NCBI RefSeq assembly: GCF_021378375.1 | Contig: NZ_CP076228.1 | Location: 720,001-752,000 of the forward strand | Reading direction: 5' to 3' | From: Wolbachia endosymbiont of Drosophila innubila | Lineage (GTDB): Bacteria; Pseudomonadota; Alphaproteobacteria; Rickettsiales; Anaplasmataceae | DNA: 32,000 nucleotides | Shown here: positions 2,166-27,765 of the stretch, in pieces | Layout: every line of letters starts with the position of its first letter | Numbering within the stretch: the first letter of the stretch is position 1 | The notes under the pieces: model-generated | The model's input: only the letters and a program-made list of their open reading frames with translations | The model's database searches: none | What the model was told of the DNA's origin: nothing | Translations under genes and position numbers: made by a program

Positions 2166-2286
2166 CTTCGTTCTAAACCACCAAGCTGAGTGCTTTCAAC
2201 ATCACTAAGTATTGTGTTTGCTTTATATAAACTACAACATCCTAATAAAAAAAAAGCCAGTGCAACTGCTGTAAAGAAAGCACTTA
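2162..2286 (-). pseudogene. displaced 3' end of the ankyrin/TM gene interrupted by the IS at 2287-3197
   Basis: Removing the IS and one TTA duplication lets the 3166..4710 frame continue for 41 codons, SAFFTAVALAFFLLGCCSLYKANTILSDVESTQLGGLERS*. This is a second hydrophobic helix ending at TAA (2162-2164), overlapping the xerC stop. Confidence 0.7.
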
Positions 2287-2310
2287 GAGGTTGTCCGGAA
2301 ACTAGTAAAT

Positions 2311-2775
2311 TCAAGCATATTCCCTCTTTAACATAACCCTACTCATAGCTAGGTATATGAAATTCTCAGTGGATGTTGTGAGTAAATCATACTCCTTCGA
2401 TAGCCTTCTATTCCTATTAACCCAAGCAAAAGTCCTTTCTACAACCCATCTTCTTGGCTGTACTTTAAACCCTTGTTCTCTTGTTGGTAGTAGCTCAGGT
2501 GGCGTATCTTTGTGCACCCAAAATCTACATGGAGGCCTTTTAACAATTTCAATATCTATGTCATATTCTTCCTTTATGTGATTCTTTAAATTTCTTCCTT
2601 GGTATCCCATGTCAGCCCACATTTTTAACTTTAGTATATTTTGTTCTCATATTGTTTAATGCTATTTTAATACCATCTCTATCATTTTCGTTAGCAGCGC
2701 CTACGTAACAACCTAGTATAAAACCCTGAGTGTCTGTAATTATATGCCTTTTTTACCCTTTACTTTTTACTTCCA
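2311..2775 (-). pseudogene. IS5-family transposase catalytic part (orfB), reading frame broken
   Basis: The C-terminal 103 aa (ADMGYQG...RWVVERTFAW...RRLSKEYD, DDE region) are open at 2311-2622. The upstream YDGSKK / RHIITDTQGF...ANENDRDG segment lies in other frames, with breaks at A-runs. Confidence 0.75.
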
Positions 2776-3138
2776 TCATAGCTTTGATCCCCCCTTTTCT
2801 GTAGTCTTTACAGATTGACTATCTACTATACAGGCACTCGGCTGCTCATTCTTTCCTATTTTTCTTCTACTATATTTTGTAATTTCATAATTCATTTTCT
2901 CAAAAATTCCCTGCTTCTTCCATTGCCTGAACTGCTCATACACAGTCTTCCATAGCGGAAAATCATTTGGTAAATACCGCCATTGACACCCTGTACGCAA
3001 TACATAGAAAATTGCTTCTAATATTTCTTTTTTGCTATACTTTGGCAGCCTTCCTCCTTTCTTGTATGATACTCTGAAGTGTTTTTCTATTCTTGCCCAT
3101 TCCCTTTCGCTTAGATCTGTTGGATACTTTTTTCTCAT
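2776..3138 (-). CDS. IS5-family transposase, N-terminal ORF (orfA, HTH region)
   Basis: 120 aa with YVLRTGCQWRYLP and SACIVDSQSVKTTEKGG, typical of the IS5-family N-terminal DNA-binding part. Confidence 0.85.
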   Translation of the reverse strand: MRKKYPTDLSEREWARIEKHFRVSYKKGGRLPKYSKKEILEAIFYVLRTGCQWRYLPNDFPLWKTVYEQFRQWKKQGIFEKMNYEITKYSRRKIGKNEQPSACIVDSQSVKTTEKGGSKL

Positions 3139-3165
3139 CTTTACCCCGTACTAAAATTTCAGATA

Positions 3166-4710
3166 TTATAGCCTTTTACTTGTTTCCGGACAACCTCTTA
3201 TTATCCCTGGATAATCTTCTATTACTAAACATGCAACAACAGTATATACTCCAAGCAATATAAAACATGCAGAAGCGTAGTTGCTCAGTTTTCTACCAGA
3301 AGAAATTGCTTGCGAGGATTTTTCGTTTTTATTACTACGGAGCAGTCTATTTTCTGATGAAAGCCTATCTCTTTCTTCCCTTACTTGTTTCAAATCTCTT
3401 TTTAATCGTGAAATTTCGACAGTGTCGCTTGCTCTTCCATACACAATTCTATTAAGTCGAGTTACTTCACTATTTAGATCATTGATTTTTGTTTTTTGAG
3501 CCGATTTTTCCTGCCTTAAATCTTCTTCTAACTGTGAAATTTTGTTAATGCCTCTCGTTCTTTCGCGTACGACCCTATCCAGCTCTCGTTCTTTTTCTAT
3601 GAGTTGAGCTTTCGTTCTTTCAAGTTCACCTTTAAGTTCTTGTATAACTTGCTCAGAACCTACCGGTATATCATTCGTACTTGCCAAAGGTTGTAATGTA
3701 TTTGCAGGAAATTTTTCATTTAGATAATTTGTAATAGATTCGATTGGATTATTAACACCCCTCAATGCAGCAGTAACAATTGCATGACTCATGAAGCAAT
3801 TATCTTCTACTAATTTTTTTACATCATCTAAATCTTTTTTATTAATAGTAGCGGTTAATCGCTCTGTAATGGCTTGTTCAATTATTTGCTTCACCCACGA
3901 ATTTTGCTCTATAGCTTGTATTGGCTTTATTTGACTAAAATCTAGCTCTTCATGTTTTAAAAGTTTTGTCAATACTTCTTTGTTATCTGATGTTATTCCT
4001 TGTAAACATGATTGAATAATTAAGCTAAGCGGCGTTTCTATTTCTTCATTTTGGCTTCTTTTCCAGCAATTAGGGTTAAACTCTTGATTTAATGGTCTTT
4101 TCGCTTGGTAAATGTTTCTGCTAGAAAGAGCACCTAACAACTCGTTTGCTTTTTGTGCTTTTTTAAATTCTAATTTTATTACGCGCTCAAATCCTCTTGT
4201 AATACAATCTTTAGAGCTTTTATATTCATAATTTTTGATATCAGTTTTTATATCTGGGTGCGTGAGCAATATTTTTACCACATCTTTAGCCCCAATTTGA
4301 CAAGCAATATGTAAAGCTGTGTCTTTGCGTATATTAGATGTTGTTATAAATCCTGATATTTGAATTTGTGTACTAAGATCATATCTCGTCCGTGTTGTAG
4401 ACACAGATTGCTTACTCTGAGCATTAATATTGATACTTCTGTTTTGTATAAGCAATTTAGCCATTTTCTCTAACGTAGCCTGTCCATTACCGCTGACAGC
4501 GCAGACATTGACAATAGACATCAAAGGTGTCATGCCCTCCTTATCAAACGCATTAACATCCGCACCTTCTTTCAGAGCTTGTTTAAAAGCTTCCGGGTTT
4601 TCGTTATCAATAGCCTTAAATAACTTTTGTGTTGGTTCATCGAGCTGTCTTGAAGTTGTCTGATTATATCTATAACCATTAGTATTTATCCCATCCCCTC
4701 TATAAAGCAT
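3166..4710 (-). CDS. ankyrin-repeat, coiled-coil, C-terminal transmembrane protein; 3' end replaced by IS sequence
   Basis: ANK motifs (GADVNAFDKEGMTPLM, DTALHIACQIGAKDVVKILL). Long heptad-like charged segment (ELKGELERTKAQLIEKERELDRV...RLKRDLKQVREERDRL). Hydrophobic helix ACFILLGVYTVVACLVI. The last 10 codons (RGCPETSKRL*) are encoded by the IS terminal repeat. Confidence 0.85.
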   Translation of the reverse strand: MLYRGDGINTNGYRYNQTTSRQLDEPTQKLFKAIDNENPEAFKQALKEGADVNAFDKEGMTPLMSIVNVCAVSGNGQATLEKMAKLLIQNRSININAQSKQSVSTTRTRYDLSTQIQISGFITTSNIRKDTALHIACQIGAKDVVKILLTHPDIKTDIKNYEYKSSKDCITRGFERVIKLEFKKAQKANELLGALSSRNIYQAKRPLNQEFNPNCWKRSQNEEIETPLSLIIQSCLQGITSDNKEVLTKLLKHEELDFSQIKPIQAIEQNSWVKQIIEQAITERLTATINKKDLDDVKKLVEDNCFMSHAIVTAALRGVNNPIESITNYLNEKFPANTLQPLASTNDIPVGSEQVIQELKGELERTKAQLIEKERELDRVVRERTRGINKISQLEEDLRQEKSAQKTKINDLNSEVTRLNRIVYGRASDTVEISRLKRDLKQVREERDRLSSENRLLRSNKNEKSSQAISSGRKLSNYASACFILLGVYTVVACLVIEDYPGIIRGCPETSKRL

Positions 4711-14571: not shown

Positions 14572-14687
14572 AGTCTGTAATATAACTTAAATGACTCTTT
14601 AAGGAAAGATAATAACGAATATTTAGGTTCTTGACTTCTATGTTAAAAGATATAACAACTAAGTTATGTATTTTAAGTGAGGAAGTT

Positions 14688-15968
14688 ATGAAATATGACA
14701 AATTTATGGAAATATTAAAAAAAATAAATGACCTTTCAGATTTGAGCAAGGACAATATAGTTGAAAAAATAAAAGCTAAGTTACAAGAAGAAGATCCAAA
14801 TTTATGTCAAGAGTGGGAAAAGAGTAAACCTGACAACGATAGTGGATCTGGCATAAATTACATATTTACTATATCTCGTGGTCAAAATTCTAAGGAAGTC
14901 AAATTGTTACATCTTGCTTCTTATTGGAACTGTGCAAATGTAGCAAAAGCTCTGATTGAAAACGGGGCAGATATTAATGCAGAACATGATAATAAAATTA
15001 CTCCTTTACATATTGCTGCTCACTATGGCCACGAAGATGTAGTAACCATTCTAACTGGAAAAGGAGCAATTGTTGATGCAAAAAATGGTGATGGATGGAC
15101 TTCTTTACATTTTGCTGTTGAAAAGAACCACGAAAATGTAGTAAACACTCTAATTGGAAAAGGAGCAAATGTTAATGCAGAAAATGATAAAGGATGGGCT
15201 CCTTTACATCTTGCTATTACAAATGGCCACAAAGAGATAGTACAAGTTCTATCAAAAGCAGAAGGAATCAACGTTGATGCAAAAAATAGTGATGGGTGGA
15301 CTCCTTTACATCTTGCTGCTGCAAATGGCCGCGAAGATATAGTAGAAACTCTAATTGAAAAAGGAGCAGATGTTAATGCGAAAGATCATTATAAATGGAC
15401 TCCTTTAACATTTGCTTCTCAAAAAGGCCATGAAGTGGTAAAAGGAGCTCTATTAAAGGCACAAGAGAACATCAAAGCTTTGCATTCAGCTGTTAAACAT
15501 AATAATGAGGAGGAGGTGAAAAACCTATTAAATAAAGGAGTAAACGTTAATGCAAAAGATGATGATGGATGTACTCCTTTACATCTTGCTGCCAGAGAGG
15601 GCTGCGAAGATGTAGTAAAAACTCTCATTGCAAAAGGAGCAAATGTTAATGCAGAAGGTATTGTGGACGAGACTCCTTTACATCTTGCAGCCAGAGGGGG
15701 CCATAAAGATGTAGTAGACATTCTAATCGCAAAAGGAGCAACGGTTAATGCACAAAATAATAAAAGATATACTCCTTTACATATTGCTGCTGAAAAGAAC
15801 CACATAGAAGTAGTAAAAATTCTAGTTGAGAAAGCAGATGTTAATGCAGAAGATATTGAGGACAAGACTCCTTTACATCTTGCTGCTGCAAAGGGCCATA
15901 AGGATGTAGTAGAAACTCTAATTGCAAACAAAGTAAGAGGTTGTCCGGAAATAAGTAAAAGGCTATAA
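14688..15968 (+). CDS. ankyrin-repeat protein (about 10 ANK repeats), 3' end replaced by IS sequence
   Basis: Tandem 33-aa repeats (G.TPLHLAA..GH.DVV..LI.KGA.VNA) as ~99-bp DNA repeats from about 14900 to 15930. The ATG at 14688 has a strong GAGGAAG RBS; the ORF is open from the TTG at 14631 and an ATG at 14640. The last 10 codons (RGCPEISKRL*) come from the IS terminal repeat. Confidence 0.88.
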   Translation: MKYDKFMEILKKINDLSDLSKDNIVEKIKAKLQEEDPNLCQEWEKSKPDNDSGSGINYIFTISRGQNSKEVKLLHLASYWNCANVAKALIENGADINAEHDNKITPLHIAAHYGHEDVVTILTGKGAIVDAKNGDGWTSLHFAVEKNHENVVNTLIGKGANVNAENDKGWAPLHLAITNGHKEIVQVLSKAEGINVDAKNSDGWTPLHLAAANGREDIVETLIEKGADVNAKDHYKWTPLTFASQKGHEVVKGALLKAQENIKALHSAVKHNNEEEVKNLLNKGVNVNAKDDDGCTPLHLAAREGCEDVVKTLIAKGANVNAEGIVDETPLHLAARGGHKDVVDILIAKGATVNAQNNKRYTPLHIAAEKNHIEVVKILVEKADVNAEDIEDKTPLHLAAAKGHKDVVETLIANKVRGCPEISKRL

Positions 15969-15994
15969 TATCTGAAATTTTAGTACGGGTAAAG

Positions 15995-16356
15995 ATGAGA
16001 AAAAAGTATCCAACAGATCTAAGCGAAAGGGAATGGGCAAGAATAGAAAAACACTTCAGAGTATCATACAAGAAAGGAGGAAGGCTGCCAAAGTATAGCA
16101 AAAAGAAATATTAGAAGCAATTTTCTATGTATTGCGTACAGGGTGTCAATGGCGGTATTTACCAAATGATTTTCCGCTATGGAAGACTGTGTATGAGCAG
16201 TTCAGGCAATGGAAGAAGCAGGGAATTTTTGAGAAAATGAATTATGAAATTACAAAATATAGTAGAAGAAAAATAGGAAAGAATGAGCAGCCGAGTGCCT
16301 GTATAGTAGATAGTCAATCTGTAAAGACTACAGAAAAGGGGGGATCAAAGCTATGA
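15995..16356 (+). pseudogene. IS5-family transposase orfA, frameshifted
   Basis: Identical to copy 1 orfA except that the A-run at 16100-16104 is A5 instead of A6. This splits the frame, so only the 74-aa distal part (16132-16356) stays open. Confidence 0.85.
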
Positions 16357-16824
16357 TGGAAGTAAAAAGTAAAGGGTAGAAAAAAGGCATATAATTACAG
16401 ACACTCAGGGTTTTATACTAGGTTGTTACGTAGGCGCTGCTAACGAAAATGATAGAGATGGTATTAAAATAGCATTAAACAATATGAGAACAAAATATAC
16501 TAAAGTTAAAAAATGTGGGCTGACATGGGATACCAAGGAAGAAATTTAAAGAATCACATAAAGGAAGAATATGACATAGATATTGAAATTGTTAAAAGGC
16601 CTCCATGTAGATTTTGGGTGCACAAAGATACGCCACCTGAGCTACTACCAACAAGAGAACAAGGGTTTAAAGTACAGCCAAGAAGATGGGTTGTAGAAAG
16701 GACTTTTGCTTGGGTTAATAGGAATAGAAGGCTATCGAAGGAGTATGATTTACTCACAACATCCACTGAGAATTTCATATACCTAGCTATGAGTAGGGTT
16801 ATGTTAAAGAGGGAATATGCTTGA
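16357..16824 (+). pseudogene. IS5-family transposase catalytic part (orfB), reading frame broken
   Basis: The 103-aa C-terminal ORF (16513-16824) is identical in protein sequence to copy 1. The upstream YDGSKK*RVEKRHIITDTQGF... segment has an in-frame TAA and shifts frame at the A6 run before 16513. Confidence 0.8.
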
Positions 16825-16848
16825 ATTTACTAGTTTCCGAACAACCTC

Positions 16849-16934
16849 TCAGATACTTTACAAGAAAAAGTGGGATAGAGGCAAAAGCAAATATTAATAA
16901 GGATAATTTAAGAAAAGCGCATACTAGAGTTTGA
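16849..16934 (+). pseudogene. possible displaced 3' end of the ankyrin gene 14688..15968
   Basis: With the IS removed, the ANK frame continues RYFTRKSGIEAKANINKDNLRKAHTRV* to the TGA at 16932-16934. This is weaker than the ANK1 case: it is short, has no diagnostic motif, and the duplication is imperfect. Confidence 0.4.
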
Positions 16935-16995
16935 AGAAGCAGTAAAAATAAAAAATATTATTGAAAGGTTAAATAGCATATGATATAATATATAT

Positions 16996-17060
16996 ATAGT
17001 GTAAAAATGTAAATAATTTTATTGACATCTTTACATTAATAGTTCTTAAATATTTAGCAC
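16996..17060 (+). repeat. left arm of ~65-bp inverted repeat bounding the orphan-gene cassette; contains a promoter-like TTGACA
   Basis: ATAGTGTAAAAATGTAAATAATTTTATTGACATCTTTACATTAATAGTTCTTAAATATTTAGCAC aligns with the reverse complement of 21542-21606. By hand alignment about 56 of 66 positions match, and all but one of the mismatches are transitions. TTGACA is at 17022-17027, followed 18 nt later by TTAAAT. Confidence 0.7.
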
Positions 17061-17099
17061 TGTAGAATTAAATTATTAAGTTCTGTGAGGGAAGTAAAA

Positions 17100-18512
17100 A
17101 TGGTGGAAAGCTTTTCAGGTAACAACAAAGGCAGTAATTTTATTGAGGAGGCAAAAATAATGGAAAATTTTTCAGATAATAACGGAAACGGTAGCTCAAT
17201 CTTCCAAGGAAAAATCAGGGAGCAAGATTGCTCTGCAGAGCAGAAGCTAAATGAACTAAAAGCAGCCATAGAGGAGCTTACCAGACAAGATTTGCTCAGG
17301 AGGCTCGAGTGTGAGCGTCAGGCTTCTAGTTGTATCGATGAAATATCATCTCAAGGAGAGCTACATATCGGAGAAGGTGATGATGAGGATTACTTCACTG
17401 GTGAAAAAGAAAGAGTACTCGGAGATTTCTGGAATTTCTTTGAATCTCTCTTCAACCTTTTTGAAGTAGATGTAGATGATCCGAAAATCTACCAAATGCT
17501 CAAGGAGAAGGAAGAAAAAAACCTGATTGCTGCGATAATGAAGTTTTTGCGTGATAAGCTTAAGGAGTTAATCAAGAAGATTTTTGCACGCGATTTAAGT
17601 TTCAATCAGAAGTTGGACAAAGAGATAAAAGAATTGCAGGAAAAATTAGGCAGTGGTGAGTTATCAGAAGAAGAGTTTGCAAGGGCGTTAGAAAGATTAA
17701 CTGCATTGCAAGATCTGAAACTCAGGTTACAAATGGCCGTTGTCGGATGGATTGTTACAATGTTCGCAGAGATGTTTGGAGTTGAGTTGGCGGCTGCGGT
17801 AGAGGCATCTACAGAAAAAGAAGATAAAAAAGCAGAAAAAACATCATTAGAAACAACTAAAGAAGTTTGCGAAAACGTAGAAATGAAAGTGGATGAAAGA
17901 GAAAAACCTAAAGTGCCAGTTTTCCTTTTTGAAATTTCACCAGGATTTGTAAGACCGGTTGTTCTGAGCAAACCAGAACTTGAAATTGTGTCAGATCCTT
18001 TGAAACATCCATTGCGTCTTGCTGAGCTTGAAAGAAAATATCATGAAAATTCACAAAAACCAGAAAAAGTGAATGAAGAGAAAAAAGCGAAGCCTGAACC
18101 GAAGAAAGAGGTGTGTCCACCGAAACTTCCAGACAAGAAGCCTGTGGCAAGTGGGATAAAAATTAATTTTAATAAAATAAAGAATATTGGTTTCCGAGAA
18201 AGGGATGCGAATACTAGTGTTAATGGAAGAGGAACCACGCCACCCACTAATGGACAAAGAAACAAGCTTGATAATGGGAAGAAAAACGAGTCTGCTAGTT
18301 ATGCAGCAAGCCGTCTGAATGGTAATGTTAATAAGAAAGAAGCGGATAACCTTTACACCGAACTTGCAAAAGAACTTGCCAATTTTAAAATAGGTGTTTG
18401 GAATGGTGCTGAGAATGAAGGTTCTGTGAATGATGCTCAATCACCAAGAGGATTGACTAATGATGTAAAAGTTGAGAAATGTGTAGAAGGTCAATCAGTA
18501 AGAAAGACATAA
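17100..18512 (+). CDS. hypothetical protein, ~470 aa: N-terminal tandem repeat, coiled-coil, hydrophobic segment, Lys/Pro/Glu-rich tail
   Basis: The ATG at 17100 is preceded by GAGGGAAG; the ORF is open from the GTG at 17085. A 20-aa unit is duplicated (MVESFSGNNKGSNFIEEAKI / MENFSDNNGNGSSIFQGKI). Charged helical stretches follow (KEIKELQEKLGSGELSEEEFARALERL), then the hydrophobic MAVVGWIVTMFAEMFGVELAAAV and the low-complexity KPEKVNEEKKAKPEPKKEVCPPKLPDKKP. Confidence 0.7.
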   Translation: MVESFSGNNKGSNFIEEAKIMENFSDNNGNGSSIFQGKIREQDCSAEQKLNELKAAIEELTRQDLLRRLECERQASSCIDEISSQGELHIGEGDDEDYFTGEKERVLGDFWNFFESLFNLFEVDVDDPKIYQMLKEKEEKNLIAAIMKFLRDKLKELIKKIFARDLSFNQKLDKEIKELQEKLGSGELSEEEFARALERLTALQDLKLRLQMAVVGWIVTMFAEMFGVELAAAVEASTEKEDKKAEKTSLETTKEVCENVEMKVDEREKPKVPVFLFEISPGFVRPVVLSKPELEIVSDPLKHPLRLAELERKYHENSQKPEKVNEEKKAKPEPKKEVCPPKLPDKKPVASGIKINFNKIKNIGFRERDANTSVNGRGTTPPTNGQRNKLDNGKKNESASYAASRLNGNVNKKEADNLYTELAKELANFKIGVWNGAENEGSVNDAQSPRGLTNDVKVEKCVEGQSVRKT

Positions 18513-18525
18513 TCGTGAAGGTAGT

Positions 18526-18645
18526 TAGATCCCAGTGTCTGGGCACTGGGATGACACCCTCTTCGATGGAAACCAGCGTCAGCTACTTGGATGACGCCTC
18601 ACCATGTCATTCCAGTGCGTGACGCTGGAATCCAGGAGTATAAAA
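18526..18645. repeat. short palindromic elements (family 2: GATCCCAGTG.CTGGGCACTGGGATGACA / GTCATTCCAGTGCGTGACGCTGGAATCCAGG)
   Basis: Two hairpin-forming units lie immediately after the 470-aa ORF stop. Related copies are at 27598-27765, 7201-7246 and 23643-23672. Confidence 0.75.
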
Positions 18646-18686
18646 ATGACGAATAAAATTTATACTAAAAAATATAAAAAAAGTGC

Positions 18687-18713
18687 TTGCACTACATTTA
18701 TTTTTAGTATATT
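18687..18713 (+). promoter_or_regulatory. possible internal promoter for the 64-aa and 819-aa ORFs
   Basis: TTGCAC, 15 nt, TATATT about 30 nt upstream of the ATG at 18745. The spacer is shorter than optimal, so this is weak. Confidence 0.25.
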
Positions 18714-18744
18714 AGTTGCATAATATTTTTACTTAAGGGTCAAT

Positions 18745-18939
18745 ATGTATAGTAATAATGATAAAAAAGATAGCGATAAAGGGTTTACTCCAAGCAGCAG
18801 GTATGAAAAGTATAGCGGTTCTAATCCGGTAATGCTTGAGGCACGTGAAAGACAGAGACGTGAAAGTAGCAAGCCTGGCTCGCAAATGGAGAGTAGTAGC
18901 TCTACTAGTGCTGGTAGTAGTAAAGGTAAAAGTAAGTAA
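18745..18939 (+). CDS. small Ser/Lys-rich hypothetical protein, 64 aa
   Basis: ATG preceded by AAGGG. The sequence is low-complexity and highly polar (…ESSSSTSAGSSKGKSK). It ends 33 nt before the 819-aa ORF. Coding status is uncertain. Confidence 0.4.
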   Translation: MYSNNDKKDSDKGFTPSSRYEKYSGSNPVMLEARERQRRESSKPGSQMESSSSTSAGSSKGKSK

Positions 18940-18972
18940 TGTTGTTTCATCATAATTTTAGTAGGGGGAGTT

Positions 18973-21432
18973 ATGGGTAATTCTACAAAAGAGCTAGTTA
19001 ACGCATTTAACTTAAATAATTATGGTATCGATAAGGTCAATACTAATTTTACTGTAGAAGGTAAAAGGATTGTTGGTTTATTTGCTAGTGGTACTAATAC
19101 AAAAGAATATCTGCGAAGAATAAGAGAGGAGATAATAAAGCAGCACTACAGTGATGGAACTGAGGTAGCAAGTGAATATTATAACTTAAACTATTTTCCA
19201 TTTGTTCTAGATGCTAATCTTGATAAAGAGGATTTAGGTAATGGCATAGTGAAAGTAAAGCTTGCAGATTCTACAGATAATCGAGTAATTCGTAACTTGA
19301 AGGTTCATTTTGCTAATGAGTTTGAGGGGGCTGTGAGATCTAAAGTGGCTGCACTTCTACAAGAATTAGTAGGAATAACGAAGGAACAAGCATATGAATG
19401 GGTCAATGGAACTGTTGGAACAGGAGCGATAGGTAGTCCTTATCTATACTGTATAGCTTTTAGCAACGAGTACCTCGAAAAAAGGTATAATTCGAGGATT
19501 TTTGAGCTATTGAAGAGTCTTTATATCAGTGAATTTAACTCAAGATTAGAGGCGTGTGGTCTTAAGAGTTCAAACTTTTATGAATATAAAGATGGTATGT
19601 TATACATTAAAAATGTGAGTGATAAGGTAGTCAGGAGTGTAACAGAATATGTTAAAGGGCGAGTAGCGCTTGATTTTAGAACTCCAGGCAGCGTAGAGTC
19701 TAAAGTTAAAAATTGTAAAAATGTTTTGAGTGAACTAATTCTTAAAGCGACAGGAAAGTTTGTTGACGGGTATGATTATGATGACTTTACAAACAAAAAC
19801 AAAATAAAGAATGGGCATAGTTTTGCTCTTATACCTTTTATAGAAGAGAATGGTCAGTTGAAATCTTTAAGTTCTAGGGATGCATCAAAGATTAAAGGAG
19901 GAATATTTAATGATTTTCATTGTATAAGTGATATTAGAGGCAAAACTGCAAATCCACAATTTGCTAATTGTAAAGAGCCAGTTTATGCTTTCTCTAATAA
20001 GCAGATTGCTCAGTTACTTCCTAAAATTATGGGGTCTCCAATTGCATATAATCAAATAAACGGACGTTTTGAATTTGCAGTTGATCTTGAGAATTTTAAG
20101 AGACGTAGCTCGAGTCGATCCTCCTCAACGGTAACTTCTCCACTCAATTCTCCTACACATGCAGAGCGACCAAGAACACCGCTTGAACAAACTGGAGCTA
20201 GGTTTTTTGAATCTAGAGGAGACAGAGATAGTGGTCTTGATGATTCACCTCCACAACTTAAGGATTCTGGTTCTTCAAGTGGTGGTCCAAGTTCTGGCTT
20301 AACTGAATTGTCATCACCGACACAGAAGTTTCCCAAGCGAAGTCGTGGTGAAGGGTTAGAGAGGCTTCTCAGGCAAGGATCAGAAAGAGAGGAAGGAAAA
20401 GGGGGGCTGTTTCAGTTGGTGCCGGGGGAAATAGATTCAAGTCAATCCACTGGTGATCAATCACAGCTATCTTTGAGTAGATCATCATCGATTTCTTCTC
20501 CTATAGCATGGGATGATTCAACATTCTTAAATCCTGAGGTTTCTAATGAGGAACCTAAAAAACAGCAAGTTACTAAGGAAAAGGAAGAAGAAAAGTTGTT
20601 TAAAGCATTGCTTTATTGGTTTAACTTAAATAATTATGCTTTGGATCCTCCTCATACTAACTTTATTGTAAAAAATGGGAAGATTGCTAGTTTAATTGAT
20701 GATAGTGTTGATGTAAAAGAGTATTTAGAGGAGATAATAGATAAAACGAAAGAAGAGTATTGTGTCAATAAGGAAGAAGCCTATGATCTCAATGAGTTTC
20801 CATTTCAATTTCTTTCTAATTGTGAGAAAAACCAAGAAACAACAGTTGTTGCTAATATAAGTCGTGGTGCCTTACTTAACTTAAAAGAACTTTTTAGTCG
20901 GGAGCATGAGGGAAAAGTAGAAATAAAAGATATCGACATTAACATCGTCGAAAAGGCAGTGAAATCTGAAAAGGACAAATGGGTAAATTTTCAGGTGCAA
21001 GAACATGGGTTATCCCCTAAAAAAGCAATTAAAACCTGTTATCCCGATGAAAGCGTATTAGAATATATTTCAATTACAAAAGACAAAGGTGGATACTGGA
21101 TTAACCGTGATTATGATGGTTCGGAAGTAGAGTCGTTTAGGAAAGAGCAATGGCCTGCTAAAGGTACGTCAAAAGCTGAAAAGATGAAGTCCGAAGATAA
21201 TAAAGGCAGCGGTATCTCTTCAGCGGAGGCGACTGATGCTGAAAACGTAAGCTCTAAAGCTGAGGCAACAACAAGTGGTTATGAGTCTATGGATTGTGAG
21301 AATACTAGAGGAGGATCGCCAAAACGTACTCTAGAGTTGAGTGTGGGAATGGAAGAATTGACAATATCCACAGACCTGTATGCCACTAAGGCCGAGCAGC
21401 ACTCTTCCATAAAAAAATTTAGAAGCAATTGA
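18973..21432 (+). CDS. hypothetical protein, 819 aa: two copies of a ~110-aa module separated by a Ser/Pro-rich disordered linker
   Basis: Strong RBS AGGGGGAG 5 nt upstream of the ATG. Module 1 (FNLNNYGIDKVNTNFTVEGKRIVGLF...KEYLRRIREEI...YNLNYFPF) repeats as module 2 (FNLNNYALDPPHTNFIVKNGKIASLI...KEYLEEIIDKT...YDLNEFPF). The linker is RRSSSRSSSTVTSPLNSPTHAERPRTPLE...SSSGGPSSGLTELSSPTQKFPKRSRGEG...SLSRSSSISSP. Confidence 0.8.
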   Translation: MGNSTKELVNAFNLNNYGIDKVNTNFTVEGKRIVGLFASGTNTKEYLRRIREEIIKQHYSDGTEVASEYYNLNYFPFVLDANLDKEDLGNGIVKVKLADSTDNRVIRNLKVHFANEFEGAVRSKVAALLQELVGITKEQAYEWVNGTVGTGAIGSPYLYCIAFSNEYLEKRYNSRIFELLKSLYISEFNSRLEACGLKSSNFYEYKDGMLYIKNVSDKVVRSVTEYVKGRVALDFRTPGSVESKVKNCKNVLSELILKATGKFVDGYDYDDFTNKNKIKNGHSFALIPFIEENGQLKSLSSRDASKIKGGIFNDFHCISDIRGKTANPQFANCKEPVYAFSNKQIAQLLPKIMGSPIAYNQINGRFEFAVDLENFKRRSSSRSSSTVTSPLNSPTHAERPRTPLEQTGARFFESRGDRDSGLDDSPPQLKDSGSSSGGPSSGLTELSSPTQKFPKRSRGEGLERLLRQGSEREEGKGGLFQLVPGEIDSSQSTGDQSQLSLSRSSSISSPIAWDDSTFLNPEVSNEEPKKQQVTKEKEEEKLFKALLYWFNLNNYALDPPHTNFIVKNGKIASLIDDSVDVKEYLEEIIDKTKEEYCVNKEEAYDLNEFPFQFLSNCEKNQETTVVANISRGALLNLKELFSREHEGKVEIKDIDINIVEKAVKSEKDKWVNFQVQEHGLSPKKAIKTCYPDESVLEYISITKDKGGYWINRDYDGSEVESFRKEQWPAKGTSKAEKMKSEDNKGSGISSAEATDAENVSSKAEATTSGYESMDCENTRGGSPKRTLELSVGMEELTISTDLYATKAEQHSSIKKFRSN

Positions 21433-21467
21433 TCTAATCCACCGCTCTCAGCCACCTAAGCGTTTTA

Positions 21468-21497
21468 TTAGGGTTAGGGCAAAGTCCCTGACCCTAA
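21468..21497. terminator. strong hairpin downstream of the 819-aa ORF (possible terminator or insulator; not canonical)
   Basis: TTAGGGTTAGGG caaagt CCCTGACCCTAA forms a 12-bp stem with one G-U pair and a 6-nt loop. No U-run follows immediately on either strand. Confidence 0.3.
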
Positions 21498-21541
21498 AGG
21501 CACTGGTGTTAGTTTTTCTCATCCATTGTAGATATTGCGCG

Positions 21542-21606
21542 GTACTAAATGTTTAAAAAGTATTAATATAAAAATATCAATAAAATTATTTATATTTTTA
21601 TACTAT
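21542..21606 (-). repeat. right arm of the ~65-bp inverted repeat bounding the orphan-gene cassette
   Basis: The reverse complement reads ATAGTATAAAAATATAAATAATTTTATTGATATTTTTATATTAATACTTTTTAAACATTTAGTAC, homologous to 16996-17060. The -35-like hexamer is degraded to TTGATA. Confidence 0.7.
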
Positions 21607-21633
21607 GCACATTACATCATGTGTTATTTAACC

Positions 21634-23541
21634 TTACAATAATTTTTTTATTCTTGCTGCTTCTTCAAATTCTAAATTTTCAGCATGCTCTATCATTTGC
21701 TTTCTCAAATCATCCTTATTAGTATTTACTTTCGGTTCTGCTATTGCCCTCTCCTGTAAGGTGTTTGATATAGGTTTTATTATAGTCTTTGGGACAATAT
21801 TGTGCAATATATTATGTTCTTCTTGTTTTTTTTTTCTTCTTTCGGTCTCTCTTAATGCGCGGTCCAGAGAACCAGTGATTTTATCTGCATACAAAATTAC
21901 TCTACCTTCAGCATTACGCGCAGCACGACCAATCGTTTGAATTAATGAAGTTTCCGATCGCAAAAATCCTTCTTTATCAGCATCCAAAATTGCAACCAAC
22001 CCACACTCTGGAATATCAAGACCTTCCCTCAGCAAGTTAACACCTACTAAAACATCGATTTCTTTAGATCTCAATTTGTATATAATTTCTATTCTCTCCA
22101 GCGCAGCAATATCAGAATGCAAATAACTCACTCTCATATTCATTTCACTCATATATTCAGCTAAATTTTCAGCCATTTTTTTCGTCAATGTAGTGATTAA
22201 AACACAAAATCCCTTCCCTATTGTCACTTGTGCCTCATGAATTACATCATCAATTTGACTCTCTATTGGTTTTACAATGCAGATTGGGTCCGTAAGCCCT
22301 GTTGGACGGATAACTTGCTCTATAAATACATTACTGGTCTTTGCCAACTCATACTTTCCGGGAGTGGCTGAAATGTAAACAGTCTGCGGCCTAACTCCCT
22401 CCCACTCTTCAAATTTTAATGGACGATTATCAAAAGCGGAAGGGAGCCTGAAGCCATAGTCAATCAATTTCTTTTTACGCGCCTCATTACCACTGTACAT
22501 CGCACCAACCTGAGGAACGGTGACATGACTCTCATCAACAAATAAAATTACGTCTTTAGGTAAATATTCAAACAAAGTAGGTGGTGGATCCCCAGCTTCC
22601 ATTCCATAGAGATAACGCGAATAATTTTCAATACCTTTACATATTCCTGTTGTTCTCATCATTTCGATATCAAAATTAGTGCGTTGCTCGAGGCGCTTTG
22701 CTTCAACAATCTTGTTTTGCGAGTAGTAATAATCCAAGCGTTCATGCAGCTCTTTTTTGACTAGTTCAATTGCCTGCAACAAAGCCTCACGCGGGGTTAT
22801 GTAATAGCTATTTGGAAAAATGGTGATTTTATTTACGCCTTTGGTAACATTGCCCGTTATAGCATCAACTTCAGAAATTTCTTCTATTTCATCGCCAAAT
22901 AACGATAAACGCCAAGCTTTATTTTCATAATGGGAAGGAAATATATCAACAATATCGCCGCGCACTCTGAAATATCCTCTCTCAAACCTGGCATCAGAGC
23001 GCTTGTATTGAAGATCAGTTAAGTTGCTCAGGAAATCATTAATACGAATTTTATTTCCAACACTAAGCGGTATGATCATGCTGCGGTAGCTCTCAGGCGA
23101 ACCAAGACCGTATATGCAGGAAACACTGGCAACTACGATCGTATCCCTGCGCTCCAAAAGGGAGCAGACGGTGGAATAACGCAGCATCTCAATTCTTTCG
23201 TTAATTGCAGAATCTTTTTCGATATAAGTATCAGTTTGTGGTAAATAGGCTTCAGGTTGATAATAATCATAATAAGAAATGAAGTATTCAACAGCATTAT
23301 GGGGAAACAATCCTTTCATTTCCTCATAAAGCTGTGCTGCTAAAGTTTTATTGTGTGCCATAATTAATGCAGGCCTGTTTGTCCTTGCAATAACATTTGC
23401 CATAGTAAAAGTTTTCCCAGAACCAGTAACTCCAAGCAAAACTTGGTCTCTTTTATTGCTATTTAGCCCCGCAATTAAACTATCGATTGCCTGCGGTTGA
23501 TCTCCAGCAGGTTGAAAATGTGTAGTGATTTGAAATTTCAT
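21634..23541 (-). CDS. uvrB: excinuclease ABC subunit B
   Basis: 635 aa with Walker [11 protein letters not shown], helicase motifs ([22 protein letters not shown]), the beta-hairpin region [10 protein letters not shown] and the C-terminal UVR motif EFEEAARIK. Confidence 0.95.
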
Positions 23542-23935
23542 AGACTTTACTTACTATCTTTGATTCATTGCATAGTGAACACTATATTGCTTTTAAGATA
23601 AGTTGTATAGCTATCGTAAAGCCATAAAACATTAACCAACAATGTCATGCAAGTAGCTGACACTGGAATCTTGTTTCAATGTTAAACAAAATACCATAGA
23701 ATTCAAGAAGACAATTCCTAAAAAATCCCTACATCCAAAAAAAGGCAAAATGCTGCTTGAATAAGCTAAATTTTTTTAGATGCAAAAACAATAAAACATA
23801 GTTGATACTAAATTATAGTACTCCTATGACAACGTTACAAAAATTAAGGAAATGGATAGCTCTGATCAATTGGAATAGTATTTTCAGGTACCGGTGGTCA
23901 ATATGACATTTTTAAAATAAAGATTTAGAACCTGT

Positions 23936-24249
23936 TTAAAATCTTCTCAATAGAAGAGAAATGAAGGAAAGAACGACCATTTGCAGGCTAGTGTTAAGTT
24001 TTCGCTCGCAATTTTTCCACAATCGTCTGCATTTTTCTAACCAAGCGAAAGATCGCTCTACAACCCATCTTTGTGGCAATACAGCAAAGGAATGTAATTC
24101 ACTTCGTTTTATTACTTCTACAGTTGCTCCAATAATCGTTTTTATTTGAGTTGCAAAATTTTCTCCTGTATAACCTGCATCGACCAGTATATTTTTAACT
24201 TCCGAGAGGTTTTCTTTTGCGCTTTCAACCATTCTCACAGCACTGCTAA
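23936..24249 (-). pseudogene. IS4/IS5-superfamily transposase, C-terminal fragment only
   Basis: DAGYTGENF...RWVVERSFAWLEKCRRLWKNCE is the DDE C-terminal region. The N-terminal part is missing, cut off at the left end of the IS982-like element. Confidence 0.8.
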
Positions 24250-25186
24250 CCCCAGTTGTAAATTAGAAAAAATAGAAAAGGTAAGGAAATAGGGTAAACT
24301 CCGAGGTATTTGATATTCATTCCTAAAATAGGAGGTTACCAATGAAAGAGAAAGTAACAGAAATCTTTTGTATAGTCGATGATTTTTGCAATACAGTCGA
24401 TGAAAATTTTGCAGAAAAACTTCTACCAAGTGGCAAAAAACCAACCAGGACGCCAGAGATTACGCATTCAGAGATTTTTACCATAATATTGCTATATCAA
24501 GTGCGACAATTTTAAAATTTTCTATGTGCATTATTTGAAATTATTATACGAATCAGCGTTTCCAAAATTGCCATCCTATAGTAGGTTTATCAGGCTAAAA
24601 TCGCAGGTTTTATGGTATTTAGCGCTCTTAATGCAATGGTTTTGCGAACAGTCAAAAGTGACAGGGATTTCGTACATAATCTATCGCTGTTTGCCATCCA
24701 AAAAGGACCTCGAGAAACAAAGTTTTCAAAGGGTTGGCAAAGATTGGAAAGACTACTTATGGGTGGTTTTTCGGTACATCTAGTAATCAACGAAACTGGC
24801 GAAATTCAAGGGGTTACGGTGACAAAAGGCAACGTTGATACCTGTGCCAAATTTAACTCAGAAATTGACTGGATTATTGTTTAGAGATAAAGGATATATC
24901 AAAAAAGATCTTTTTCACGAATTATTCGATAGAGGGTTAAAGCTTGTAACCAGTATAAAAAGGGTATGAAAAACTCATTAATGGTGCTAAATGAGAAGAT
25001 TTTGTTAAGAAAAAGATCGATTATTGAGACAGTTTTTGGCTCTCTGAAAAACAAATTTGAGATTGAGCATACTCGCCACAGATCACCGATAAATTTTTTG
25101 GTACACATTTTTTCTACGCTTGTTTCATATTCCATGCAGCCGCTGCATTTCTAAGCTTTACTTCGTTGGCTAATCCGCAACTGGGG
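24250..25186 (+). mobile_element. IS982-family element, transposase multiply frameshifted (degenerate)
   Basis: Ends CCCCAGTTGTAAATTAG (24250) and, reverse-complemented, CCCCAGTTGCGGATTAG (ending 25186). The internal frames read MKEKVTEIFCIVDDFCN (ATG near 24341), FPKLPSYSRFIRL, GFSVHLVINETGEIQGVTVTKGNVD and IIETVFGSLKNKFEIEHTRHRS. These are IS982-type motifs spread over three frames. Confidence 0.8.
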
Positions 25187-25450
25187 TATATAGGGTTGAC
25201 ACCAAGGCAATATTCTTCTGGAAAAGTTGATCGGCATGGCAGCATATCAAAGATGGGACCAGCGGAATGTAGAAGTATGTTATATGAAGCTGCACAAACA
25301 ATGCTTACAGTTACCAAGAGGACATTTAAATTAAAAAACTGGGGTTGCGAAGAAAAAAGGAATGAAAAAAGCAATTGTAGCAGTAGCAAGAAAATTAGCT
25401 GTAATTATGCATAGGATGTTGGTTGATAAAACAGAATTTTATTATCAATA
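25187..25450 (+). pseudogene. IS110-family transposase, C-terminal fragment, frameshifted
   Basis: GLTPRQYSSGKVDRHGSISKMGPAECRSMLYEAA, then after a frameshift in an A-run, KKAIVAVARKLAVIMHRMLVDKTEFY*. This is the typical IS110 C-terminal domain. The N-terminus is absent. Confidence 0.75.
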
Positions 25451-25758
25451 AACATCAAAAGAGCATAGGACAATAATTTTATTGAAAATAAAGATAGCAA
25501 TGCCGATGGAAGGGACAAGCAAGAACTTAGTTAGACTTCGTGGTAAACATGTTACCGTCCACTTCCGCCTAACAAGTATAATGCGGCTTGACAAGTTTAT
25601 TGTCATCTCAGACCGCGGAGAGAACCATATGCTACTTTTCACTTATGTAAAATTACCAAGGATTATGGAGAAGATATGCTGTTTTGATTTGTGTGAAAAT
25701 TATTGTTGACTTATGTGCAATTAGAGAACCTAAGTCACTTTAGCTATATATAAAAGGT

Positions 25759-26136
25759 TTAAGTGGTTGTATTGATGTATCTTTGTATTAAAAAACACCC
25801 AATAAGCAGAGTTGTAAGTGGAATAAACCACAAAATGTAAGTGCTAGGTGGTACGATTATAATTGAATTGCCGTAAGAATTTTTTAACTCTGAGATTATC
25901 TCTTCATCAGTGTATCCATCATTGATTTTTTTACGAATTGCTTCTCGCATATCATACGCGATCTGAGATCCAGATTCAGACAATGATTCGCCAGAACATA
26001 TTGGACACCTTATTATTTCAAATAAACTGGTTGCTCGTTTTTCCATGCTTTTATCTCTGAGTTTATTATCCAGAGTAAAAGCGTTTACGCCTGAGTGGAA
26101 TATCAATATGAAAAGTAAGCTAATTACTATTCTCAT
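25759..26136 (-). CDS. ccmH: cytochrome c-type biogenesis protein CcmH/CycL
   Basis: 125 aa with a signal-like N-terminus, the motif RCPICSGESLSESGSQIAYDMR (C-x-x-C heme-handling) and a C-terminal TM helix. Confidence 0.88.
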   Translation of the reverse strand: MRIVISLLFILIFHSGVNAFTLDNKLRDKSMEKRATSLFEIIRCPICSGESLSESGSQIAYDMREAIRKKINDGYTDEEIISELKNSYGNSIIIVPPSTYILWFIPLTTLLIGCFLIQRYINTTT

Positions 26137-27597: not shown

Positions 27598-27765
27598 TTC
27601 CAGTGCCTATTTTTTGTTATCCAAGTAGCCGACACTGGTTTCCAGAAAAAAGGGTGTTATGCAAGTAGCTGACACTGGTTTCCATCCAAGACGGCAGTGC
27701 CCTCTTCTTGTCATCCTAGTGCCTTCTTCTTGTCATCCCAGTGCCCAGACACTGAGATCCAGGAA
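27598..27765. repeat. cluster of family-2 short palindromic elements
   Basis: CCAGTGCC..., the CAAGTAGC(C/T)GACACTGGTTTCCA core (27631-27653) repeated at 27662-27684, and GTCATCCCAGTGCCCAGACACTGAGATCCAGG. Confidence 0.75.

Follow-up and report, generated by a model that had tools for sequence, protein, structure and literature searches.

Composite elements and cargo cassettes bounded by insertion sequences (IS) or terminal inverted repeats are among the described systems that the locus reported here resembles, i.e. inverted repeats enclose a few accessory-looking genes and IS elements lie nearby. The locus differs from them in that its repeats consist of host-gene sequence, and in that no transposase, target-site duplication, copy-number variation or presence/absence variation accompanies them. 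Inversions with duplicated breakpoints are the other relevant system. The staggered-break model, in which an inversion carries inverted duplications of a breakpoint, was described for Drosophila. There, as here, a segment is inverted in comparison to outgroups, and sequence that is present once at the outgroup breakpoint is found at both ends of the segment in opposite orientation. The present case is different in being bacterial, old (apparently before the split of Wolbachia supergroups A and B) and small (4.5 kb inverted, ~0.35 kb duplicated).

The enclosed genes are homologues of WD0835, WD0837 and WD0838 of wMel. WD0835 was described as a Wolbachia-restricted candidate effector with a conserved N-terminal and a variable C-terminal half, and in mosquito cell culture it gained non-synonymous mutations in parallel (bioRxiv 10.1101/2023.09.20.558649). 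The literature treats it as a candidate host-interaction effector and discusses it as a regulator of symbiont density. Its expression is reported to correlate across host development with that of WalE1 (WD0830), a characterised Wolbachia effector whose gene is a neighbouring locus in wMel; we detected no sequence relationship between WalE1 and the three proteins. WD0838 was reported among the paternally transferred Wolbachia proteins. The label given to WD0838 in PMC10442437, 'glycerophosphoryl diester phosphodiesterase', is unsupported by any family match. The locus tags WD0835, WD0837 and WD0838 are absent from the main text of Rice et al. 2017.

Organization of the locus

The window, i.e. 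the whole stretch of DNA that was analysed, comprises 32,000 nucleotides from the Wolbachia endosymbiont of Drosophila innubila, and all coordinates refer to it. The features of interest are the following.

14631-15935, + strand: ankyrin-repeat gene with 10 Ank repeats (E = 4e-91), 3' end truncated by an IS
15936-16850, + strand: IS5-family insertion sequence, which we take to be ISWpi1-like, ~916 bp, Pfam DUF4096 and DDE_Tnp_1_2, transposase in fragments
16851-17060, + strand: whole left arm, a frameshifted uvrB 3' pseudogene fragment and a copy of the uvrB-WD0835 spacer
16851-16983, + strand: uvrB 3' remnant in the outer left arm, with a 17-nt deletion and a frameshift
16961-16989, + strand: best sigma-70 match for the three-gene unit, TTGAAA, 17-nt spacer, TG-n-TATAAT (11/12)
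16997-17038, + strand: AT-rich 20+2+20 palindrome, left copy
17100-18512, + strand: gene 1, WD0835 homologue, 470 aa from the ATG at 17100, with GAGGGAAG just before it
18567-18634, unstranded: G+C-rich palindromic repeat between genes 1 and 2 (-41 kcal/mol, z = -3.8)
18745-18939, + strand: gene 2, WD0837 homologue, 64 aa, rich in serine and lysine
18973-21432, + strand: gene 3, WD0838 homologue, 819 aa
21468-21497, unstranded: G+C-rich hairpin 36 bp past the gene 3 stop (-34.9 kcal/mol, z = -2.9)
21542-21811, - strand: whole right arm, the last ~59 uvrB codons (21634-21811) and the 92-bp former uvrB-WD0835 spacer (21542-21633)
21564-21605, - strand: palindrome, right copy, 29 nt past the uvrB stop and followed by CTTTTT
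21634-23541, - strand: uvrB, intact, WD0839 homologue, 635 aa

An earlier reading of the same DNA (below, the sequence-only reading) had placed the three genes between an IS-disrupted ankyrin gene on the left and uvrB on the right, and this neighbourhood was confirmed. The ankyrin reading frame continues into the end of the IS. The IS has the terminal inverted repeats GAGGTTGTCCGGAAA and is 99% identical over 921 bp to another copy at 2283-3200, which has TTA on both sides. The triplets that flank the copy at 15936-16850 are TAA and TCA, i.e. there is no identical target-site duplication, and this copy is therefore a chimera produced by recombination between two IS elements. Its presence truncates the left arm on the outer side. 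Collinearity with the wMel-like loci begins at 16849 and extends to at least 25322 with 99% identity, and gene order and spacing are as in wMel, where WD0838 adjoins WD0839 (uvrB). The left flank is different: wMel has WD0834, degP and hflKC in the place where the window has the IS and the truncated ankyrin gene. The left-arm remnant of the window is ~33 bp shorter at its outer end than that of wMel.

The palindromic repeat at 18567-18634 belongs to a dispersed family, with further copies at 23644-23666 and 27616-27678. For the hairpin at 21468-21497, a role as terminator or 3'-end structure of the three-gene unit is probable, and in supergroup B a conserved copy of this 3' flank likewise follows gene 3. 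The tail of uvrB is shortened by a 1-nt deletion that is common to supergroups A and B. An Rfam scan of the whole window gave no match.

The three genes and their products

The three ORFs (475/470, 64 and 819 aa) had been described as orphans. This is correct in the sense that they belong to no Pfam or NCBIfam family: searches with the three proteins returned sub-threshold noise alone (GvpG, SHOCT, NUC, XopX), and the names 'GvpG' and 'SHOCT' on some NCBI records are due to such a sub-threshold match. It is not correct in the sense that WD0835, WD0837 and WD0838 have hundreds of Wolbachia homologues. The proteins of the window are ~96-97% identical to members of a wMel-group cluster that includes AAS14521 (WD_0835) and AAS14523. 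The family is small, i.e. 138 clusters among 1.84 billion representatives.

Gene 1 has an alternative start at GTG 17085, which gives the 475-aa form. Its protein consists of a helical N-terminal half (~aa 42-225) and a disordered, fast-evolving C-terminal half, and its AlphaFold model (pLDDT 42) is too poor for a fold search. The gene 2 protein is likely to be disordered, judged from its composition. For the gene 3 protein the predicted layout is a confident N-terminal domain (aa 1-375), a disordered linker (376-533), a C-terminal domain (534-725) and a disordered tail. Within the protein, residues 6-124 show homology to residues ~544-652. An exact-sequence look-up of the 819-aa protein found no identical entry, and close homologues were used instead. 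Gene 3 had no fold or sequence match among solved structures, and profile searches with the gene 1 and gene 3 families against PDB sequences gave nothing meaningful. If the N-terminal domain of gene 3 is truly without a structural relative, the operon would encode a new fold specific to Wolbachia and Mesenet.

The three genes are inherited vertically as a unit restricted to Wolbachia and near relatives, and they probably form a single transcription unit (operon). As regards function, the lineage restriction, the disordered and fast-evolving regions and the statements in the literature point indirectly to the three proteins as candidate type IV secretion effectors.

The inverted repeats

The sequences at 16996-17060 and 21542-21606 are reverse complements over 65 nt, with 56 of 65 positions matching (86% complementary). 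In 20 dinucleotide-preserving shuffles of a 9-kb region, the best matches comprised 38-44 positions. The reverse-complementary arms of ~65 bp that had been claimed are thus real, and their differences are indeed nearly all transitions (8 of 9). It is only the outer boundary of the repeat that had been set too narrowly. Homology runs outward to 16851 on the left and to ~21811 on the right, i.e. the 65-bp match is the inner portion of a longer repeat of ~210 bp in the window and ~250-290 bp in relatives without the IS.

The outer portion of the repeat is the 3' coding end of uvrB. Translation of the left arm yields EAKANINKDNLRK and, across the 17-nt deletion and the frameshift, LEFEEAVKIKNIIERLNSI followed by a stop. 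The tail ...KNIIERLNSI, which is the ancestral C-terminus, is retained in the remnant, as is the ancestral stop codon (TGA, 16981-16983). Between the two arms, the inner 65 bp are 86-91% identical, the outer part 64-73% (gapped global alignment) and the whole arms ~77% (BLAST). The higher similarity of the inner part would call for constraint or gene conversion.

Conservation and synteny

WD0835, WD0837 and WD0838 are kept as a unit in supergroups A-E and in wCfeF and wCfeT, and the sister genus Mesenet has recognisable homologues of two of the three genes. In every Wolbachia supergroup sampled, the position of gene 2 is taken by a small ORF (64-75 aa); its sequence similarity was compared in supergroups A, B and C and in wCfeF. 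Two orientations of the unit are seen. In wFol (supergroup E), wLsig (supergroup D), wCfeT and Ca. Mesenet, uvrB is followed on the same strand by the homologues of gene 1 and gene 3, and the small ORF is between them in wFol, wLsig and wCfeT. Homology of the genes in these loci is borne out by BLAST (E = 1e-10 to 6e-65) and, for gene 3 of Mesenet, by hhalign (84%, E = 8e-6). In supergroups A and B the unit is inverted, i.e. convergent with uvrB, and the uvrB end and spacer are duplicated at both ends. This orientation is fixed in all A and B loci sampled, and the arms and the gene order are common to wMel-like, bee-associated and wCauA strains of supergroup A and to one strain of supergroup B. 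When the uvrB 3' end and spacer of D and E, where they are single-copy, are aligned with the arms of A and B, they are collinear with the left as well as with the right arm.

A third situation is found in wOo (supergroup C) and wCfeF, where uvrB is not adjacent and the left arm alone accompanies the three genes. In wOo ~200 nt of the uvrB 3' end still precede gene 1. At the protein level the remnant is weak (tblastn E = 0.001 in wOo and ~1 in wCfeF). In wOo and supergroup A the distal flank is on opposite sides of the unit: next to the 3' end of gene 3, wOo has a block of WD0834 pseudogene, degP, hflC and hflK, whereas the WD0834-degP-hflCK block of supergroup A abuts the remnant on the gene 1 side. 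There is one reference lineage for this flank swap, wOo, because the genes that follow gene 3 in supergroups D and E are different ones (rpoD; a UvrD-like helicase). The UvrD-like genes of loci L083 and L089 were tried as a flank comparison and rejected, as they are not orthologues (21% identity). A contig search with a UvrB query returned, among the matches listed, distant uvrB loci only (54-64% identity), none of them labelled Wolbachia or Mesenet, the list having been filled by matches to a universal motif.

Some loci contain additional copies. Locus L083 (supergroup B) has, between gene 3 and uvrB, a second stretch in inverted orientation that comprises upstream gene, remnant, promoter and the 5' half of gene 1, and wCauA has a second, paralogous module arranged head to head. 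Both in L083 and in L088 the additional copies are local duplications in inverted orientation.

Promoter and palindrome

The -35 hexamer of the match at 16961-16989 is inside the last ancestral uvrB codons, and the -10 hexamer follows directly after the ancestral uvrB stop. Both hexamers (TTGAAA-17-TATAAT) are kept in the left arms of supergroups A and B and of wCfeF, while wOo has kept the -10 alone; the counterpart in wLsig is TTGAAA-17-CATAAT. On these grounds the likely promoter and leader of WD0835-WD0838 can be placed at 16961-17099. Transcripts of gene 1 would be expected to begin at ~16996 from this promoter, or at ~17070 if a second candidate -10 hexamer, TAGAAT at 17063-17068, is used. 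In the right arms the hexamers are degraded to TTGTAA...TGTAAT or TGCTAT. The sequence-only reading had considered antisense transcription from the right arm into gene 3, which finds no support in the sequence, as the canonical promoter appears to have decayed there. The promoter-like core ATTTTATTGA(C/T)A that it had noticed is present in both arms; it is the 3' half of the palindrome and is without an acceptable -10. The same applies to its proposed TTGACA at 17023-17028, which was rejected, there being no acceptable -10 at a distance of 16-18 nt.

The left copy of the palindrome contains the ATTTTATTGACA of that reading and would form a hairpin at the 5' end of the leader if the promoter at 16961-16989 is used; the right copy may act as a 3' hairpin of uvrB. 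The right copy differs from the left by two double changes from G-C to A-U. The palindromes of the arms fold with -12.8 to -13.4 kcal/mol (z ~ -2), and in the right arm CUUUUU follows. A consensus terminator scan makes no call here because the stem has too few G-C pairs. Pairing is kept at 81%, in comparison to 36-50% when the partners are slid, and double changes are seen at 3 positions; the covariation is weak, i.e. 23-25 of 500 shuffles reach the observed value.

Origin of the repeats

The repeats are very probably what remains of an ancient inversion in which a conserved three-gene unit was flipped relative to uvrB, one breakpoint being left duplicated. The orientations agree with this, being the same as that of uvrB in D, E, wCfeT and Mesenet and convergent in A and B; the breakpoint sequence of the uninverted state, aligned from D and E, is the sequence of the repeat; and the distal flank has changed sides between wOo and supergroup A. 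The sequence-only reading had considered the remnant of an inverted duplication, which was right in essence, although the duplicated unit is the uvrB 3' end with the uvrB-WD0835 spacer and not a promoter with its gene.

We propose the following course of events. In the ancestral state the three-gene unit would have been located directly downstream of uvrB on the same strand, and its promoter would have overlapped the last uvrB codons and the stop. As to the ancestral downstream flank, wOo itself could be rearranged. The unit would have been inverted in the common ancestor of supergroups A and B, which have the 1-nt deletion in the uvrB tail and the arms in common; the event would therefore predate their split. 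The duplicated region would have included at least the last 86 uvrB codons and ~95 bp of spacer. We infer that staggered breaks at one end of the inversion gave rise to this duplication, with one copy placed at each end in opposite orientation. As uvrB sequence, the copy before WD0835 would have degenerated into a pseudogene; its promoter and leader were retained, so that in our proposal it still drives the operon. The copy on the working uvrB would have kept its coding function and the palindrome and lost the promoter hexamers. In other words, since a single copy was half coding and half regulatory, the two copies would have decayed in complementary ways. At a later time, recombination between ISWpi1-like copies would have exchanged the sequence left of 16851 for the truncated ankyrin gene.

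The sequence-only reading had raised, as one of two possibilities, a mobile or formerly mobile effector cassette with terminal inverted repeats, inserted between the ankyrin gene and uvrB. Such a cassette would fit the inverted repeats around exactly three lineage-specific genes, the variation of the module flanks between supergroups and the vicinity of IS elements, but we find it barely credible. The arms run on into the coding sequence of uvrB, a core gene, and are for this reason not the termini of an element; their counterpart in D and E is a single-copy uvrB and spacer, and wOo and wCfeF have the left arm alone. There is no transposase or recombinase within the arms (none of the three internal ORFs matches Pfam or NCBIfam), and transposase fragments are found outside the arms only, in the IS at 15936-16850. 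The junction with the ankyrin gene is a later, IS-mediated event of this lineage only, whereas the position next to uvrB is held even in the outgroup Mesenet. Presence/absence polymorphism and further copies of the arms had been named as features to look for; the unit is present in every supergroup sampled, and the module is found once, at a uvrB-linked or remnant-linked site, in A-E, wCfeF, wCfeT and Mesenet. As the locus is not a transposable effector cassette, it provides no evidence for horizontal shuttling of these genes.

An origin in two steps deserves more weight, even if it is still unlikely. Here, either a copy of uvrB and the spacer was inserted in inverted orientation after gene 3 and the original uvrB was deleted except for its 3' remnant, or the block of uvrB and the module was duplicated tail to tail and the redundant uvrB and second module were lost; the same low likelihood applies to both variants together. 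The locus is prone to inverted duplications, as is seen from the inverted copy in L083 and the second module of wCauA, and the final arrangement would not differ from the one left by the inversion. By sequence alone, a one-step staggered-break inversion and an inverted duplication followed by loss would look alike. More events are required, however, and a simple duplicative insertion does not predict that hflKC-degP-WD0834 changes sides between wOo and supergroup A. It is also conceivable that the repeats were kept for a function of their own, i.e. as the recombination substrate of a reversible operon flip, by which coupling to the transcription of uvrB would be switched, or as paired operators for a palindrome-binding regulator. 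The better conservation of the inner 65 bp between the arms, the maintained pairing of the palindrome with its double changes and the occurrence of both module orientations among the supergroups speak for it. We nevertheless consider it very improbable: a single orientation is found in all sampled loci of A and B, arms with the overall identity given above are poor substrates for homologous recombination, no site-specific recombinase gene is nearby, and the covariation is weak.

Implications

We put forward, tentatively and with more doubt than confidence, the possibility that the regulatory region of the operon is embedded in the last codons and the 3' flank of uvrB and is under selection, with the palindrome as a shared RNA or operator element. 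Such selection would explain why the uvrB 3' fragment before gene 1 survived at least two separate events, i.e. the A/B inversion and, in supergroup C (wOo), a loss or relocation of uvrB. The remnant of wOo, which is without an adjacent uvrB, is consistent with a regulatory region inside the uvrB end. wCfeF may be a further case of a retained uvrB fragment, its remnant being weak. The palindrome would once have coupled the termination of uvrB to the initiation of the operon and would now have separate roles at the two sites. The 3' end of a DNA-repair gene would in this manner have persisted as regulatory sequence after the gene itself had moved. The inversion with its paired uvrB scar is, moreover, a clean rare genomic change and a phylogenetic marker common to supergroups A and B.

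Extent and origin of the inverted repeats

The three-gene module (gene 1, 17100-18512; gene 2, 18745-18939; gene 3, 18973-21432; all on the plus strand) lies between two arms that the sequence-only reading had described as reverse complements of about 65 bp, differing almost exclusively by transitions. The stretches 16996-17060 and 21542-21606 are indeed 86% complementary (56 matches in 65 nt), and 8 of the 9 differences are transitions. When the 9 kb around them were shuffled 20 times with dinucleotides preserved, the best inverted 65-mer match was only 38-44. The repeat is, however, much longer than 65 bp and runs outward on both sides: a repeat search of the window gave four collinear inverted pairs (left 16877-17060, right 21542-21739), and gapped alignment and blastn placed the outward limits at 16849 and about 21811. 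The features concerned are the following.

About 15934-16852: IS5-family element, with a 99% identical copy in the opposite orientation at 2283-3200
16849-17060: left arm, uvrB 3' pseudogene fragment and post-uvrB sequence (alignment, blastn)
16997-17038: AT-rich palindrome (20+2+20) of the left arm
21542 to about 21811: right arm, 3' end of the working uvrB and post-uvrB sequence (alignment, blastn)
21634-23541, minus strand: uvrB (WD0839 homologue)

The outer section of the repeat is coding sequence of the adjoining uvrB. Translated, the left arm reads ...EAKANINKDNLRK... and then LEFEEAVKIKNIIERLNSI*, spanning a 17-nt frame-shifting deletion; it is thus a uvrB 3' pseudogene fragment followed by about 80 bp of post-uvrB sequence, of which the right arm has a copy behind the working gene. 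Arms of identical type, reaching about 33 bp further outward (L082 7839 and 12793), are carried by a wMel-group locus (L081) and a bee-associated supergroup A locus (L082).

Gene order in other genomes

The window is collinear with L081 from 16849 to at least 25322 (99%) and with L082 over 16849-26000 (97%). The order gene 1, small gene, gene 3 is also kept in supergroup B (L083), in wOo (supergroup C) and in wCfeF; the flanks of the module differ among these three, left-arm sequence precedes gene 1 in all of them, and there is no right-arm copy after gene 3 in wOo or wCfeF. In wFol (supergroup E), wLsig (D), wCfeT and Candidatus Mesenet, the sister genus, uvrB and the module share a strand, with uvrB immediately upstream. 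Here the homologues of gene 1 (E = 1e-35 in wFol, 6e-65 in wLsig, 1e-29 in wCfeT, 2e-10 in Mesenet) and of gene 3 (5e-20, 5e-40 and 1e-50 in the first three) are found downstream of uvrB, and the second Mesenet gene matches the N-terminal domain of gene 3 (hhalign 84%, E = 8e-6).

In supergroups D and E the uvrB 3' end and the spacer between uvrB and gene 1 are single-copy, and this sequence can be aligned collinearly with either arm of supergroups A and B. The ancestral order is therefore uvrB, gene 1, gene 2, gene 3; in A and B the module has the opposite orientation relative to uvrB, and the breakpoint region occurs at both of its ends. An inversion predicts a flank swap, and this is observed: the block that adjoins the uvrB remnant on the gene 1 side in supergroup A (hflK, hflC, degP, WD0834) lies next to gene 3 in wOo, as a degraded WD0834 followed by degP, hflC and hflK. 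Both the arrangement and a 1-nt deletion shortening the UvrB tail are common to A and B, so the event is older than the A/B split; the ancestral tail with its TGA stop survives in the left arm alone.

The module had also been read as a mobile cassette, which we reject, since the arms run on into uvrB coding sequence. The other suggestion, an inverted duplication, was essentially correct, except that what was duplicated is the uvrB 3' end with the spacer and not a promoter with its gene. We propose an old inversion of a conserved operon, in which the uvrB 3' end and spacer would have been duplicated at the breakpoint. This is an ordinary kind of genome change, and a literature search found no publication describing this inversion; it is useful chiefly as a phylogenetic marker and as a guide to the promoter of the operon.

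The UvrB deletion lies in an A-run near the 3' end and gives a shorter, different terminus (...IKKLL*, window 21634-21660) in place of ...IKNIIERLNSI* (pseudogenic left arm, window 16951-16983). In precomputed Pfam lists the two closest clusters of UvrB (99% and 94% identity) lack the UVR domain (PF02151), which UvrB of wFol, wCfeT and Mesenet has.

Predicted promoter and palindrome

The best sigma-70 match of the region (TTGAAA, 17-nt spacer, TG-n-TATAAT; 16961-16989, 11/12) has its predicted -35 within the last codons of the ancestral uvrB and its predicted -10 directly after the ancestral stop codon. Left arms of A, B and wCfeF retain both hexamers and wOo just the -10; the wLsig counterpart is TTGAAA-17-CATAAT. 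In right arms the hexamers have changed to TTGTAA, which now contains the stop codon of uvrB, and to TGTAAT or TGCTAT. Just past the inner end of the repeat lies another conserved motif, TGTA(G/A)AAT (17062-17069); it is missing from the right arm and could be an alternative -10.

With a transcript start near 16996 the leader would begin with the palindrome. Both arms have kept the palindrome (81% paired, as against 36-50% with slid partners), with both-side changes at three positions, including G-C to A-U via G-U in the right arm. The observed values were reached by only 23-25 of 500 shuffles, a suggestive signal that falls short of proof. In the right arm the palindrome lies 29 nt past the uvrB stop and is followed by CTTTTT, and so it may serve as a uvrB 3' hairpin. 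The promoter-like core ATTTTATTGA(C/T)A noted earlier in each arm exists as a motif, but it is the 3' half of the palindrome; as no acceptable -10 follows, we rejected it as a promoter, and antisense transcription from the right arm is not supported by the sequence.

The three genes and their proteins

Family scans gave no Pfam or NCBIfam family for any of the three ORFs, as had been noted, but the genes are not orphans: they are homologues of wMel genes. Exact-sequence and cluster look-ups identified gene 1 as a homologue of WD_0835 (450-475 aa by annotated start), gene 2 as a homologue of AAS14523 (64 aa; WD0837 assigned by position) and gene 3 as a homologue of WD0838 (819 aa), next to which uvrB is WD0839. 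There are more than 186 homologue clusters for gene 1 and 83 for gene 3, nearly all labelled Wolbachia, and the nearest homologues of both come from wInn. An exhaustive profile search found only 138 relatives of gene 3 among 1.84 billion representatives.

The literature presents WD0835 as a candidate effector restricted to Wolbachia, conserved in its N-terminal half and variable in its C-terminal half; during culture in mosquito cells it gained non-synonymous mutations in parallel, and its expression follows that of WalE1 (bioRxiv 10.1101/2023.09.20.558649). WD0838 was detected among paternally transferred Wolbachia proteins (PMC10442437). We note that candidate effector is a literature label, and that this status is putative for the module proteins.

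The structure model of gene 1 is of low confidence (pLDDT 42), with predicted helices at residues 42-225 and the remainder disordered. In the model of gene 3 a disordered linker (376-533) joins a confident N-terminal domain (aa 1-375, pLDDT about 88) to a C-terminal domain (534-725), after which comes a disordered tail. Residues 6-124 recur at about 544-652 as an internal duplication (34% identity, E = 1e-14). Foldseek gave no match below E = 0.05 in PDB and BFVD, and profile searches against PDB sequences none for the gene 1 or gene 3 families. The linker is rich in serine, proline and glycine and highly variable in length among strains (proteins of 520-1165 aa). Gene 2 encodes a 64-aa protein rich in serine and lysine. 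All Wolbachia supergroups sampled have a small ORF of 64-75 aa at the corresponding place, with identities of 44-52% in B, C and wCfeF.

Rearrangements around the module

The IS5-family element, which like its copy at 2283-3200 we take to be ISWpi1-like, cuts short its neighbours on both sides, an ankyrin gene and the uvrB remnant. The triplets bordering it are unequal (TAA and TCA), whereas the copy at 2283-3200 lies between two TTA triplets and looks like a simple insertion. For the element beside the remnant this points to recombination between two IS copies rather than to a simple insertion, an event that would account for the lack of hflKC, degP and WD0834 here.

The site is prone to inverted duplications, as related loci in supergroup B and wCauA (supergroup A) show. 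In the former (L083 12654-19118) gene 3 and uvrB are separated by a 6.4-kb insertion whose start falls within the right-arm palindrome. In this insertion are ankyrin fragments, a fragment of a phage terminase, and a second copy, in inverted orientation, of the 462-aa gene upstream together with the remnant, promoter and 5' half of gene 1. In wCauA (L088 6288-12019) a second, paralogous module stands head-to-head beside the first, with a 5'-truncated gene 1 copy (95% DNA identity) and a gene 3 of only 34% protein identity, whose distant paralogue family is shared by several further strains of supergroup A (P0072-P0081). In wCfeT a DDE_Tnp_1-family IS lies between genes 1 and 2 (L092 10633-11589) in an otherwise ancestral uvrB-module order; if the three genes form an operon, it would be split there.

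Immediately past uvrB (window 23936-25400) there are several degraded transposase fragments. They include pieces of DDE-type ORFs, and comparison with the collinear L082 identifies a Transposase_20 fragment. L081 and L082 have these fragments too, which makes the junction an old one within supergroup A. The window also has four matches to a dispersed family of G+C-rich palindromic repeats (18567-18634, 23644-23666, 27616-27678). One of them separates genes 1 and 2 and another is just upstream of uvrB; the repeats resemble palindromic repeat elements known from Rickettsiales genomes.
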